Shown: piece by piece, positions 1-31,337 of the stretch
How positions within the stretch are numbered: position 1 is the stretch's first letter
Layout of the letters: every line of letters starts with the position of its first letter
Source of the DNA: Acidimicrobiia bacterium
GTDB taxonomy: Bacteria > Actinomycetota > Acidimicrobiia > IMCC26256 > JAMXLJ01
NCBI GenBank assembly: GCA_024281095.1
Contig: JAMXLJ010000157.1
Span: 20,183-84,182, forward strand
DNA length: 64,000 nucleotides
Reading direction: 5' to 3'
Notes under the pieces: model-generated
Seen by the model: the letters and a program-made list of their open reading frames with translations, nothing else
Told to the model about the DNA's origin: nothing
Databases searched by the model: none
Program-made: the position numbers and the translations under genes

Positions 1-55
1 CGTCGACGGTGGTGTCGGCGCGAAGTTCCCCTATCCGATGGGCGACCTCTGACCC

Positions 56-685
56 GTGGCCGGCGCGCCCGTTCCGTTCACGGTCTGGTCCGACTTCTTG
101 TGACCGTGGTGCTACGTCGCGGCGGTCCGCCTCGATCGATTGCAGGAACGAGCCGGTGATCTGGTGTCGATCGAGTGGAAGGCGTTCCTGCTCCGGCCGC
201 ACCCCGAGCCCCGCCCGCTCGAGCAGTTCCGCGCGTACACGAAGCGCTGGGAGCGACCGGCCGCTATGGAGCCGGGATGCGAATTCCACCCGTGGACGAG
301 CGACACACCGCCGCCGACGCACAGCGTGCCCGCCGCGGTCGCGGCGCGGGTTGCGCGTCGCTTCGGAGCTGATGCCGCCCACCGCTACGACGGCGCGCTC
401 TTCCGCGCGTATTTCACCGAGAACCGCACCGTGTCGGCGCGAGGCGTCCTCGTGGAGATCGCGGCCCAGATCGGCCTGGATCCCGAAGCCTTCGACGGCG
501 CGCTCACCCGCCACGGCGAGGAGGAACAGCGCGCGGTGTTCGCCGCCTACCACGAGGCGGTCGAGCTCGGGATCCACGCCGTGCCCGCGGTCGTGGTCGA
601 CGGCCGCTTCCTCGTGCAGGGTGCCGTGGAGGTCGACGACTACCTGCGGGTCGTCGACCGGGCGCGCGAGCGCCGCGACGAGTAG
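56..685 (+). CDS. DsbA/FrnE-family thiol:disulfide oxidoreductase with an in-frame TGA (101-103) at the first position of the CxxC motif; candidate Sec-containing (UxxC) protein or disrupted gene
   Basis: Frame-2 translation from GTG56 reads VAGAPVPFTVWSDFL-TGA-PWCYVAAVRLDRLQERAGDLVSIEWKAFLLRP and continues without a stop to 685. WSDFxCPWCY is the family N-terminal redox motif. The ORF track only reports 140..685 (TTG start), which lacks the redox motif. An upstream same-frame ORF ends at TGA 50-52. Confidence 0.6.
116..136 (+). other. SECIS-like stem-loop 13 nt downstream of the in-frame TGA
   Basis: 117-123 (UCGCGGC) pairs with 129-135 (GCCUCGA) with one C/U mismatch, plus a G-U pair at 116/136. 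Apical loop GGUCC at 124-128 starts about 23 nt after the U of UGA. Confidence 0.35.
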
Positions 686-724
686 GCGCGCGCATCTGGC
701 CGCGTCCCGAAAGGTCGCGACAAA

Positions 725-1507
725 ATGACGGTTCCGAGCGCTGAGGAGGGCACGTCTGTGGGACGTTACGACGGTCGGGTCGTCATCGTGACCGGCGCCG
801 GCTCCGGCATCGGCCGCGCCACCGCGCTGCGGCTCGCGCAGGAAGGCGCTTCGGTCGCGTGCCTCGACGTCGTGGACGACGCCAACAAGGCGACCGCGAC
901 CGAGGCCAGCGCGTTGGGTTCCGACAGCCGCGCGCTGCACTGCGACGTGAGCGACGAGCACGCGGTGTCGGCCGTCATCGGCACGGTCACGGCCGAGCTG
1001 GGCCGGCCCTGGCTCCTGTGCAACATCGCGGGTATCGGCCGGTTCGCGCACACGCACGAGATGTCGCTCGCGGACTGGGCCCGCATCATCGCGGTGAACC
1101 TCACCGGCACGTTCCTCATGACCCGCGCGTGCATCCCGCTCCTGCTCGAGACGGGAGGCAGCATCGTCAACATCGCGTCGGTCGCGGGAATCAAGGGCCA
1201 GCCGTACAGCGCCGCATACTCCGCGTCGAAGGGCGGTGTCGCACTGTTCACACGCGCGCTCGCGGTGGAGTACGCGTTGCAGGGGTTGCGCGCCAACGCG
1301 CTCGCGCCCGGCGGTATCGACACCGCCATCACCGGGAGCTTCGAGTTCCCCGAAGGCGCGTCGATGGCGCTGATGTCGCGGATCATGCCGTACCGCTCGA
1401 TGGGGAGGCCCGAGGACTGCGCCGCGCTCATCGCGTTCCTCGGGTCCGACGAGGCCCGATACATCAGCGGGGCGATCATTCCCGTCGACGCCGCCGTCAC
1501 TGCCTGA
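725..1507 (+). CDS. SDR family oxidoreductase (FabG-like)
   Basis: 260 aa with TGAGSGIG Rossmann motif and YSASK catalytic motif. Confidence 0.85.
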   Translation: MTVPSAEEGTSVGRYDGRVVIVTGAGSGIGRATALRLAQEGASVACLDVVDDANKATATEASALGSDSRALHCDVSDEHAVSAVIGTVTAELGRPWLLCNIAGIGRFAHTHEMSLADWARIIAVNLTGTFLMTRACIPLLLETGGSIVNIASVAGIKGQPYSAAYSASKGGVALFTRALAVEYALQGLRANALAPGGIDTAITGSFEFPEGASMALMSRIMPYRSMGRPEDCAALIAFLGSDEARYISGAIIPVDAAVTA

Positions 1508-1517
1508 GGAGGAACCC

Positions 1518-1976
1518 GTGGGTGTCAAGCAGCGTGACGTCATCAAGATGACGCAAGAGGAGATCGACGAATTCCTGCAGGGCCGACACTCGATGTCGAT
1601 CGCCACGATGAACCACGATGGCTCCATCCATCTCGTGGCGATGTGGTACGGATTCCTCGAAGGCGCGGTCGCGATCGAGACGAAGGCCAAGAGCCAGAAG
1701 GTGTTGAACCTCCGCCGGGACCCGCGCATGAGTGCGCTCGTCGAGGACGGCGAGTCCTACGAGGAGCTGCGCGGCGTCGAGCTCGTCGGACGGGGCGAGA
1801 TCGTCGACGACCCCGAGCGCATGTTCCAGCTGGGCATCAGTGTCTTCGAGCGGTACCAAGGAGGGGAATACACCGAGGAGATGCGTCCGTTCGTCGAGGT
1901 GATGTTGAACAAGCGCGTGGTCGTGAAGCTCCACGTCGACCGGGTGGTCAGCTGGGACCACCGCAAGCTCGCATGA
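1518..1976 (+). CDS. PPOX-class (pyridoxamine 5'-phosphate oxidase-like) probable F420-dependent oxidoreductase
   Basis: 152 aa. Contains ...EIDEFLQGRHSMSIATMNHDGSIHLVAMWY..., typical of the split-barrel PPOX family. Confidence 0.7.
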   Translation: MGVKQRDVIKMTQEEIDEFLQGRHSMSIATMNHDGSIHLVAMWYGFLEGAVAIETKAKSQKVLNLRRDPRMSALVEDGESYEELRGVELVGRGEIVDDPERMFQLGISVFERYQGGEYTEEMRPFVEVMLNKRVVVKLHVDRVVSWDHRKLA

Positions 1977-28398: not shown

Positions 28399-28953
28399 TC
28401 AGTCGCGCTGCGAGAGGCGTTGCACGAGGAGCTCGACGAGCTGACGGTCGACCTCGTCGAGGCGGGCGATGCGACGGGCGAGCGCGGTGCTGCGACTGTC
28501 GGGGGCTCCGGTCGCGCTGACCAGACGCGGCGCCGCCCGACCCAGACGGCCGCGCAGCTCACCGCCCTCGAGCTCCAGTGCGTCCGCCAGCCGCTGCAAC
28601 TCGTCGGCGGTCAGGTTCGGCAGCACGCGTACGCCGCCGTACGCGGTCTGGTATCCGGATTCCAGCGCCTTGAGCGTCGACTCCGGGAGCTTGGCCTTCT
28701 TCGCGGTGGCCCGGCGGTTCAGGCTCAGCTGCTCGCGGCGCTCGGCGACGAAGCGGCCGAAATCCGCCCAGCGCTGTGCCTCGTTGACGCCGTGCATGTT
28801 CCCGGACCGCCGCGGCGGGACGGCCGTGCGCGATTGGTGGTGCAGTGGCGTCACCTCGACGAAGTCGTCGTCGTCTTCGACGGCGTCGTCCTCGGGCAGC
28901 TCCCGCTCCTCGTCTCGAGGGTGCACATCCGCTGCATGGTCGTCATGTTCCAT
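28399..28953 (-). CDS. XRE-type HTH protein with acidic N-terminal region
   Basis: FGRFVAERREQLSLNRRATAKKAKLPESTLKALESG fits the HTH_XRE pattern. N-terminus MEHDDHAADVHPRDEERELPEDDAVEDDDD. Confidence 0.55.
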   Translation of the reverse strand: MEHDDHAADVHPRDEERELPEDDAVEDDDDFVEVTPLHHQSRTAVPPRRSGNMHGVNEAQRWADFGRFVAERREQLSLNRRATAKKAKLPESTLKALESGYQTAYGGVRVLPNLTADELQRLADALELEGGELRGRLGRAAPRLVSATGAPDSRSTALARRIARLDEVDRQLVELLVQRLSQRD

Positions 28954-29677
28954 TGGCGCTCCCGTTGAACGTGAGGCTCAGCGTGCTCCCGGTCTGATCC
29001 GGGATCGACAAGGGTTGGCCGTCGAGTGTGATCGTCACCTGCTTCGCGGCCCCGAGGCGGAGCACCACCGATCCGTTGACGGGGATCTGTTGCGTGTCAC
29101 CTGAGTGCAGCGTCTGCTCGAAGAGCGGTGTACCGGTGTTGTTCGGATCGCTGGCGCGGACCCAACACGAACCAGTTGCCGCGATGGCGAGGGTGTAGGC
29201 CGACCGGTTCACGGCAAAGGTCACCGCGCCGTTCGCCTGGCTCGTGATGGAGGCCTGGGCGACGGGTGGTGGCGGTGCCGTGAGGCTCGTCGTGGCCGTG
29301 GGCGCTGCCGTCGTCGATGCGGAGGTGTGATGCGTCGTCGGTGTGGAGACAGACGCGGCCTGTTTCTGGTTCGTGTTGCGCCCGATCCACCAGATCGCCC
29401 CGACCCCGGCGAGCACGAGGCTGACGGCGAGCGCGACGGCGAGTGGGGCGAGCGAACGCTGCGTACGACTGATGTACGGCATCGGAGCGCTGCGGGCAGG
29501 GCCGGCGGGTACCGCGGCTGGGGCGTCGGAGCGCGAGCGCGATGCGGCGTGTTGGAGCGCGTCGAGCGCGCGCTGCTGGTGTTCGACCGACTCGAGTGGT
29601 GTCGGAGCCTGGCGGTACCAGCGTCGCAGCGCGAAGACCCAGATCAGGGCCAACAGCACCGCGATGACGACGGGCAT
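28943..29677 (-). CDS. membrane protein with DUF4115 (RodZ C-terminal-like) domain
   Basis: ATG29677 is preceded by GGGAGG. Two TM segments, a Thr/Ala/Pro linker, then ...YTLAIAATGSCWVRASDPNN...VVLRLGAAKQVTITLDGQP. The upstream 258 codons of ORF 28943..30451 are discounted. Confidence 0.6.
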   Translation of the reverse strand: MPVVIAVLLALIWVFALRRWYRQAPTPLESVEHQQRALDALQHAASRSRSDAPAAVPAGPARSAPMPYISRTQRSLAPLAVALAVSLVLAGVGAIWWIGRNTNQKQAASVSTPTTHHTSASTTAAPTATTSLTAPPPPVAQASITSQANGAVTFAVNRSAYTLAIAATGSCWVRASDPNNTGTPLFEQTLHSGDTQQIPVNGSVVLRLGAAKQVTITLDGQPLSIPDQTGSTLSLTFNGSANGT

Positions 29678-29842
29678 AGGGCGGGTCCTCCCGGGTCGTG
29701 CCTCGTGCGCCCTGTTCCTTGCCCCCGATCCCGCTCGAACACTCCGCGGGCGACCATCGCGGATCGGGCGGCGTGACTGCAAGGGAACGGGGAAAGAATT
29801 CTGCCGTCTGCGAACACATGGTTTCGCGCGGGCGCGCGGCGG

Positions 29843-29854
29843 GCCGAATTCGGC
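29843..29854. repeat. 12-nt perfect palindrome GCCGAATTCGGC
   Basis: Read directly from the sequence. Shares the GCCGAAT half-site with 29880-29886 and 29928-29960. Confidence 0.7.
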
Positions 29855-29927
29855 GCCGGGCGCAGGGCCGCAGCCGCCCGCCGAATCACGGTCCTCGAAC
29901 GCTCGCACCGCCCCGTCTTTCGGGCCA

Positions 29928-29960
29928 TTCGCGCCGAATCGACGGTCGATTCGGCGCGAA
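29928..29960. repeat. 33-nt perfect palindrome (16-bp arms, 1-nt centre) TTCGCGCCGAATCGAC-G-GTCGATTCGGCGCGAA
   Basis: Every pair from 29928/29960 to 29943/29945 checked as complementary. Lies in the 475-nt divergent intergenic region. Confidence 0.8.
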
Positions 29961-30152
29961 GTGGCGCGCGAACAGGGGTTTCGCACGCCGGGATCCGACG
30001 TTTTTGGCGCGGGCGGCGGCGAGCGGTCCGTGGGCGGAAAGGTGCGGTCGAGCGCGGCGAGCGCGTAGTGGATGACCTCTTCGTACGGCATCGCCGCGGC
30101 GTATGCGGGCCTCTCTGACGTGCTGTTAGATTCGCTGCCCCCGGGAGGTGAC

Positions 30153-31337
30153 ATGTTTCTCGAGTACGCCCGCGAGCAGCGCGAACTGCGCGACACGCTG
30201 CGCGAGTACTTTGCCCGCCTGCTGACGCCGGAAGTCCGCGCGGAGATGGGCTCGCCGGGTGAGGGCAGCCCGTTGTTTCGCACGGTCGTCAAGCAGATGG
30301 GTGCCGACGGCTGGCTCGGGATCGGGTGGCCGAAGGAGTACGGCGGCCAGGGCCGCCCCGCGGTCGAGCAGTTCATCTTCTTCGACGAGGTCCAGCGGGC
30401 CGGAGCACCGTTCCCGTTCGTGACGCTCAACACCGTGGGGCCGACGATCATGCGCTACGGGTCGCAGGAGCAGAAGGACTTCTTCCTCCCCGGCATCCTG
30501 CGCGGCGAGGTCAACTTCGCCATCGGGTACACGGAGCCCGAAGCGGGCACCGACCTTGCGTCCCTTCGCACCCGGGCCGTGCTCGACGGCGACGAGTGGG
30601 TCATCAACGGCAACAAGGTCTTCACGAGCGGAGCGAACCAGGCCGATTACATCTGGCTCGCGTGCCGAACCGATCCGGATGCGCCGAAGCACAAGGGCAT
30701 CTCGATGATCATCGTCCCGACGTCCGTCGACGGGTTCAAGTGCACGCCGATCGTGACGGTGGGCGACGTCGTCACCACGGCCACCTACTACGACGACGTG
30801 CGCGTCCCGAAGGACAACGTCGTCGGCGACGTGAACGCGGGCTGGCGGCTCATCACGAACCAGTTGAACCACGAGCGCGTGGGCCTGGCCGCGCTGGGGG
30901 GCCTCACGCACCGCCTCTGGGACGACGTCGAGCGCTGGTGCCGCGACACCGACTCGGGTCGGGGCGACGGCACGAAGATGATCGACCTGCCCTGGGTTCA
31001 GATGGATCTCGCCCGCACGCACGCCAAGCTCGAGGCGATGAAGCTGCTCAACTGGCGGATGGCGCTCGCGGTGGGCGCCGAGACGCTGAGCCCGGCCGAC
31101 TCTTCCTCGGTGAAGGTCTACGGCACCGAGTGCCTGATCGACGTCTACCGCAGCCTGCTCGGGATCCTCGGGGCCGCCGGCTACCTCAAGGCGGGCTCGC
31201 CGGGTGCGGCGCTGCGGGGCGACGTCGAACGCGCGGCACGGGCCGCACAGATCAACACGTTCGGAGGCGGTGTGAACGAGGTGCAGCGCGAGATCGTCGC
31301 CGCGGTCGGCCTCGGCATGGCGCGCACGGCGCGATAA
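30153..31337 (+). CDS. acyl-CoA dehydrogenase, alpha-subunit type
   Basis: ATG30153 follows GGGAGG. Sequence MFLEYAREQRELRDTLREYFARLLTPEV...; paralog of 10276, 15640 and 53913. Confidence 0.85.
   Translation: MFLEYAREQRELRDTLREYFARLLTPEVRAEMGSPGEGSPLFRTVVKQMGADGWLGIGWPKEYGGQGRPAVEQFIFFDEVQRAGAPFPFVTLNTVGPTIMRYGSQEQKDFFLPGILRGEVNFAIGYTEPEAGTDLASLRTRAVLDGDEWVINGNKVFTSGANQADYIWLACRTDPDAPKHKGISMIIVPTSVDGFKCTPIVTVGDVVTTATYYDDVRVPKDNVVGDVNAGWRLITNQLNHERVGLAALGGLTHRLWDDVERWCRDTDSGRGDGTKMIDLPWVQMDLARTHAKLEAMKLLNWRMALAVGAETLSPADSSSVKVYGTECLIDVYRSLLGILGAAGYLKAGSPGAALRGDVERAARAAQINTFGGGVNEVQREIVAAVGLGMARTAR

Follow-up and report, generated by a model that had tools for sequence, protein, structure and literature searches.

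At the start of a 64,000-nt stretch (the window) from the genome of an Acidimicrobiia bacterium, a reading frame for a DsbA/FrnE-like protein is interrupted by a TGA at the codon of a catalytic residue. The question is whether this codon is read as selenocysteine (Sec), as the initial annotation proposed, or marks a damaged gene, a sequence error or a protein that starts further downstream. Judged from comparative sequence data, positions 56-685 very probably encode a DsbA/FrnE-like oxidoreductase of the COG2761 type with Sec at residue 16 (U16), the UGA being recoded with the help of a hairpin at 116-136 (Table 1). Our analysis reproduced every coordinate first reported for the start codon GTG56, the TGA at 101-103, the stop at 683-685 and the hairpin with its GGUCC loop.

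Table 1. Positions of the gene, its predicted Sec elements and related features. Coordinates are those of the window unless a related locus (L) is named; counts for base pairs are among Sec-type sequences.
Feature	Position	Strand	Remarks
3' end of upstream gene (short-chain dehydrogenase)	2..52	+	ends at TGA 50-52, in frame with the DsbA-like gene
Predicted DsbA/FrnE-like selenoprotein CDS	56..685	+	209 residues; active site U16-P-W-C19
GTG start codon	56..58	+	3 nt past the stop of the upstream gene
Predicted UGA selenocysteine codon	101..103	+	replaces the N-terminal catalytic Cys of CxxC
TGC codon, resolving Cys C19 of U-P-W-C	110..112	+	PWC invariant in all Sec-type sequences
Candidate bacterial SECIS hairpin	116..136	+	stem 116-123 / 129-136; best-supported core 118-123 / 129-134
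Hairpin pair	118-134		kept 114/118; CG 93, UG 21
Hairpin pair	119-133		kept 118/118; GC 101, GU 17
Hairpin pair	121-131		kept 117/118; GC 102, CG 14, UA 1
Hairpin pair	122-130		kept 118/118; GC 55, GU 24, AU 38, UA 1
Hairpin pair	123-129		kept 117/118; CG 117
V176-P177 codons, cis-proline loop facing the active site	581..586	+	assigned by homology
AhpC/TSA genes with TGA (nine loci)	L066, L073, L127, L128, L138, L141, L143, L144, L159
AhpC/TSA examples	L144 9072-9821; L159 4615-5346	-	reverse-complement locus coordinates, counted from the far end
Redoxin-family protein with ASW-TGA-GC	L043 1889-2995; L115 7351-8496	+	365-380 residues; Pfam E = 2e-11

The gene and its active site

After the TGA (codon 16), frame 2 stays open until the TAG at 683-685, and translation from GTG56 gives VAGAPVPFTVWSDFL*PWCYVAAVRLD..., the asterisk being the TGA. 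No start codon other than GTG56 lies between the stop of the upstream gene and the conserved N-terminal strand, and its place directly after that stop suggests that the two genes are translationally coupled. On a contig that is 98% identical to the window (L161), the upstream counterpart is a 266-aa adh_short protein ending just before the DsbA-like gene. A longer N-terminus is excluded by the in-frame stop at 50-52. Only nine residues (MAGAPVPFT) precede the first strand of the window protein; they leave no room for a signal peptide, from which we infer a cytoplasmic location.

With U read as C, the product matches the Pfam family DSBA (PF01323) at 92 bits (E = 5e-26), well above the curated cut-off of 25.6, and the match covers residues 10-196, corresponding to profile positions 4-186 of 191. 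Among relatives of solved structure, the closest is FrnE of D. radiodurans (5cnw; E = 2e-12 over residues 8-197), whose WSDIACPWCY aligns with WSDFL-U-PWCY of the window protein, placing the TGA opposite the first Cys of CPWC, and about 40 full-length Cys homologues with 44-55% identity read FTVWSDFLCPWCYVAAVRLD at the motif. From these alignments it follows that the TGA stands at the attacking, N-terminal Cys of the CxxC dyad; both this placement and the assignment to DsbA/FrnE-like proteins had been made in the initial annotation and hold. V176 and P177, invariant in our alignment A1, lie opposite GVP of FrnE. Having a CxxC-type dyad as well as a cis-Pro loop, the predicted protein is, by its sequence, a member of the DsbA-like thioredoxin-fold family. 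NCBIfam has no equivalog model for the DsbA-like subfamily, and the best match there, at 41 bits against a cut-off of 190, was to a different selenoprotein family.

The TGA is shared by relatives of the gene, as was suggested as a check when the locus was first described. Locus scans seeded with peptide patterns from the Sec-type alignment, which overstate the share of the Sec form, gave 164 loci (window included), of which 157 have TGA and 7 a Cys codon at the homologous position; with one genome taken per GTDB species, 75 of the 80 best loci have TGA. Among the metagenome loci with the motif, 77 of 79 had TGA and the other 2 had TGC at the same codon. Protein identities among the 157 TGA loci range from 40 to 98%, and TGA also stands in all of four Logan contigs (4/4), which come from four different sequencing runs and match window positions 1-1114 at 98% DNA identity. 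The TGA-bearing GTDB loci, the closest of which are 72-77% identical, come mostly from Acidimicrobiia/Acidimicrobiales and Rubrobacteraceae MAGs. The TGA form is thus widely carried in Acidimicrobiia and Rubrobacteraceae genomes, and the expectation that Sec is rare in Actinobacteria fails for the members of these groups that have the gene (75/80 best GTDB loci, in a Sec-seeded scan). Cys forms are many in the wider family, at 44-55% identity. The Sec clade appears to be both large and old.

One locus with a conflicting label (L083; CAZJSY010000107.1, 'uncultured Burkholderiales bacterium') has 80% DNA identity to window positions 2-1600 and carries a Sec-type gene with 77% protein identity; it is probably mis-binned, as all other close relatives are Acidimicrobiia.

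The hairpin downstream of the TGA codon

The stem of the hairpin contains the pairs 117-135, 118-134, 119-133, 121-131, 122-130 and 123-129, with one mismatch, C120/U132, which is C/U in the window and G/U in most relatives. Its apical loop, GGUCC at 124-128, starts 23 nt after U101 and includes the conserved G125 and U126. Folded by itself, 116-136 reaches -9.4 kcal/mol. When positions 101-160 were folded together, the minimum-energy structure differed from the hairpin (z = -0.34), and on the single sequence the hairpin does not stand out from chance. Single-sequence folding is uninformative here because the DNA is so rich in GC (69-70% in the window), and the significance of the hairpin is therefore drawn solely from comparative data.

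Across 118 distinct Sec-type sequences, the core pairs are kept almost without exception (Table 1), and the loop follows the pattern N-G-U-N-Y, the last position being a pyrimidine, in 117 of them. The compensatory changes link third positions, where they are synonymous, to first positions, where they alter the amino acid: the Gly codons GGG, GGC and GGT pair with Leu CTC, Val GTC and Ile ATC, while Ala GCN, Thr ACN and Ser TCN pair with Arg CGC/CGT, CGT and CGA, respectively. These codon associations are perfect or nearly so (P = 1e-18 and 1e-13, Fisher tests ignoring shared ancestry). RNAalifold recovered the same core from an alignment of 58 sequences (A2), in which 90.7% of the cells were paired in comparison with 37-44% after sliding the partners by 1-3 columns; none of the 500 shuffles reached the observed covariation score.

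The stem is maintained in the Sec-type genes and not in the Cys-type genes. Of 119 Sec-type sequences, 113 have all five core pairs intact; of 14 Cys-type ones, only 3 do (P = 1e-9, a Fisher test that ignores phylogeny). The difference persists where the encoded peptide, VAAVRL, is identical: in the Sec forms the stem codons GTC, GCG, CGC and CTC are fixed in 10 of 10 sequences and the third positions facing the loop vary, whereas in the Cys forms the stem codons are variable and the stem is kept in 2 of 8. This pattern indicates selection on the stem at the RNA level, and only where the codon is TGA.

The element also agrees with the published consensus of bacterial SECIS elements (PMC13188914, Fig. 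2A), which has a loop of 3-9 nt, a stem of 4-16 bp, a distance of 16-37 nt between UGA and loop, a G within the first two loop positions that is followed by G or U, and a minimum free energy of -7.5 kcal/mol or lower. In the window, the loop is 5 nt long (3 nt if G124 and C128 pair), the stem has 6-8 bp with one mismatch, 20 nt separate the UGA from the loop, G occupies the first two loop positions and U comes next, and the energy is -9.4. The early description of the hairpin as SECIS-like is thereby borne out, by covariation as well as by fit to the consensus. Rfam gave no match in the window at gathering thresholds; the only permissive match, to SECIS_3 at 76-118, scored 11 bits (E = 9) where gathering needs 63, and was rejected as noise. 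RNA covariation is superimposed on a coding sequence with unusual clarity in this alignment, which could seed a covariance model for a class of bacterial SECIS that is absent from Rfam.

Decoding of the TGA codon

In the mechanism that we propose, the hairpin would fold in the mRNA while the ribosome is decoding the start of the gene, with its loop 20 nt past the UGA. SelB carrying Sec-tRNA(Sec) would dock on the apical loop at G125-U126, assuming that the organism depends on SelB and tRNA(Sec), and the tethered SelB would bring Sec to the UGA, competing there with release factor 2 and allowing translation to run to 683-685. Given selenium incorporation at U16, the selenolate of this residue would attack substrate disulfides and C19 would resolve the intermediate. 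The product may thus cycle between a selenolate/thiol and a selenenylsulfide (U16-C19) form, and exchange, reduce or isomerise cytoplasmic disulfides. Sec enzymes usually have faster kinetics.

The Sec machinery was searched for with ARAGORN (window and 120 loci), Pfam (50 predicted proteins of the window) and tblastn with E. coli SelA, SelB and SelD (window and 1.58 Mb of related loci). Neither the 64-kb window nor the 1.58 Mb of related loci held selA, selB, selD or a gene for tRNA-Sec, and ARAGORN found no tRNA gene in the window. Within the sequences searched, no sel gene is linked to the DsbA-like gene. A Sec machinery has indirect support: all 84 complete genomes of Actinomarina (Actinomarinales, Acidimicrobiia) are reported in a 2026 preprint to have selA, selB, selC and selD, five selenoproteins are listed for Rubrobacter xylanophilus (PMC1794560), and related loci have further selenoprotein genes next to the DsbA-like one, as described below. 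The source genome is probably that of a selenium user. ARAGORN also predicted long tRNAs near the DsbA-like gene in loci of marine Acidimicrobiales, namely an 87-nt 'tRNA-Arg acg' (L091 8081-8167 and L022 1081-1167) and a 97-nt 'tRNA-Val gac' (L147 2667-2763); none is a tRNA-Sec, none matches an Rfam family at gathering score, and they are likely false positives.

With the sel genes unseen in these sequences, and with Cys tolerated at position 16 in homologues, the codon might be read through by other means than SelB and Sec, such as a reassigned UGA, a near-cognate Trp or Cys tRNA or Cys-tRNA(Sec), and residue 16 would then not be Sec. We regard this as improbable, although it is the likeliest of the alternatives. 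A general reassignment is at odds with stop usage, as TGA is the commonest stop of the window, ending 31 of its 50 predicted genes including the one immediately upstream, and no other credible in-frame TGA was found within the window. Moreover, the conserved hairpin, the G-U in its loop and the SECIS spacing are what recognition by SelB requires, the DsbA-like family is listed as a selenoprotein family, and related genomes carry further UxxC genes with TGA. The only other candidate with coding signal on both sides, a TGA at 29328 (+), was rejected as antisense to an ORF on the minus strand (28943-30451); this ORF has 502 residues, and the GC3-based gene caller predicted nothing there.

Two further genes with TGA were seen in related loci. 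In loci of the Rubrobacteraceae type, an AhpC/TSA-redoxin gene (Pfam E = 9e-35) with FYRGDW-TGA-PYC lies on the opposite strand, just downstream of the DsbA-like gene, and in two loci (L140 and L152) it has TGC in place of TGA. It looks like the known Prx-like UxxC selenoprotein family, and its TGA form is evidence of Sec decoding in those genomes that does not depend on the DsbA-like gene. The second, the redoxin gene with ASW-TGA-GC, is directly upstream of the DsbA-like selenoprotein gene in L043 and 2 kb away from it in L115; in both loci the TGA is followed by a conserved perfect hairpin, CCUGCC-CGGGU-GGCAGG. This is probably another known UxxC redoxin selenoprotein.

A related thought is that the source organism has no canonical selABCD and decodes the UGA with its hairpin in some other way, through a divergent factor or with another residue. 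We give this slightly less credence still, because the loop has the G-U of the SelB type and because the element is spread across lineages that use Sec.

Translation could also begin past the TGA, for instance at TTG140, from which an ORF to 685 is present; the product would be a protein of 181 residues with the DsbA fold and no redox motif, the upstream piece being left untranslated. The automatic gene calls in databases agree with such a start: the 11 closest database proteins (69-97% identity) all start downstream of the motif (11/11) and have 172-184 residues, while the more distant Cys-form proteins are full length. The called starts, however, vary among orthologues and fall within helix 1 of the fold, and the loss of strand 1 and the active site would take away parts that define the fold, as seen from the alignment with FrnE residues 14-212. 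In addition, conservation at the protein level, with variation at third positions, extends over the 15 codons that precede the TGA as well as the PWC that follows. Over the last 10 codons ahead of the TGA, the mean entropy is 0.55 at first, 0.53 at second and 1.40 at third codon positions, with Ser encoded by both TCN and AGC and Leu by both CTN and TTG. Third-position variation of this kind implies that the stretch before the TGA is translated and under purifying selection, and 156 of the 157 Sec-type loci have an in-frame start 10 or more codons ahead of the TGA. A start past the TGA is thus very unlikely.

A further explanation, in part allowed for in the initial annotation, is that TGY was turned into TGA by a recent nonsense mutation, or that the assembly or the base call is wrong, and that the gene is a pseudogene or really encodes CPWC. 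It has practically no chance of being correct: TGC/TGT and TGA are only one base apart and the hairpin is not significant on the single sequence, but the same codon is TGA in 157 loci at 40-98% identity, in 75 GTDB species and in four independent assemblies 98% identical to the window, the codons upstream of it show coding-type selection, and the stem codons are maintained only in TGA forms. Taken together, conservation of the TGA, coding selection upstream of it and the in-frame starts effectively exclude a recent mutation, a sequencing error and a downstream start.

Genomic context and known systems

No neighbouring gene is common to more than 11 of the 80 genome loci; the context thus offers no clue to the function, and the DsbA-like protein looks like a stand-alone redox enzyme. 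The Cys-type genes (L170, L173 and L175; also L098) share a fixed context, being preceded by a gene of about 112 residues and followed directly by one for an EamA-family transporter. In a cluster of 11 genome loci, a similar membrane protein is encoded about 600 nt past the motif. The Sec-type genes have no conserved neighbour. The main Cys clade may therefore form an orthologous group of its own and not consist of recent Sec-to-Cys reversions. Two Cys forms, in L137 and L020, are nested in the Sec clade.

Within the window itself, positions 2742-60558 are dense in genes for lipid or steroid side-chain catabolism. They include at least eight acyl-CoA dehydrogenases, several thiolase or thiolase-like proteins and two ChsH2-type OB-fold proteins, together with two family III CoA-transferases, two cytochromes P450, two luciferase-like monooxygenases, enoyl-CoA hydratase, TetR regulators and short-chain dehydrogenases. 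No link between the catabolism genes of the window and the selenoprotein was found.

The DsbA-like selenoprotein gene is real and usually mis-annotated, and its family has been known since 2005. As gene callers stop at the Sec codon, close homologues are stored in databases in N-truncated form without the active site, and recognising the codon would restore a functional redox enzyme from what is otherwise an annotation failure. Existing knowledge of selenoproteins is unchanged by this, and the gene represents no new kind of biology.

E. coli DsbA shares with the window protein the thioredoxin fold with an inserted helical domain, an active site of CxxC type and the cis-Pro loop (PF01323). It is, however, an exported protein, a periplasmic disulfide oxidase with CPHC, and the window protein has U-P-W-C and no signal peptide; the latter rules out a periplasmic DsbA. 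The window protein is not an orthologue of E. coli DsbA.

A closer likeness is to D. radiodurans FrnE, a cytoplasmic disulfide oxidoreductase/isomerase of the DsbA fold that also has the WSD-x-x-C-P-W-C-Y motif, the cis-Pro loop and no signal peptide, but has Cys where the window protein is predicted to have Sec. FrnE has 260 residues; the extra C-terminal tail of FrnE carries a second CxxxxC motif. At 209 residues, the window protein is 51 shorter and has no C-terminal Cys pair, as no Cys follows C75, its only other Cys. Lacking the C-terminal extension, it does not count as a FrnE in the strict sense.

The SECIS element of E. coli fdhF, the reference for bacteria, resembles that of the window in being a hairpin inside the coding sequence right after the UGA, with GGUC in the apical loop. 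The loop sequence of fdhF given in the initial annotation proved to be right in the K-12 sequence, where GGUC occupies positions 22-25 from the U of the UGA; in the window it is at 24-27, 2 nt further, and the loop G-U is accordingly at 25-26 as opposed to 23-24 in fdhF. The stem sequences of the two hairpins are unrelated, and the bulged U of fdhF has no counterpart that we could find in the window stem, which has the non-Watson-Crick position C/U (G/U in relatives) instead.

The closest known system is the family of DsbA-like (COG2761) UxxC selenoproteins with predicted SECIS elements, described from the Sargasso Sea in 2005 by Zhang, Fomenko & Gladyshev (PMC1088965). It was found in four genomes in 2006 (PMC1794560) and in 41 organisms by 2016 (Peng et al., PMC5029168), and is entered as 'DsbA-like protein form 1' (PF01323, UxxC) in a 2026 review (PMC13188914). 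The window gene shares with this family the Pfam and COG assignment, the UxxC motif with Sec in place of the first Cys, and the downstream SECIS with a small G-containing loop, and many of the related loci are contigs of marine metagenomes, the environment of the first description. Judged by COG and Pfam, motif and habitat, the window gene would belong to this published subfamily, from which we see no difference in kind, and would be a further high-GC member of it.
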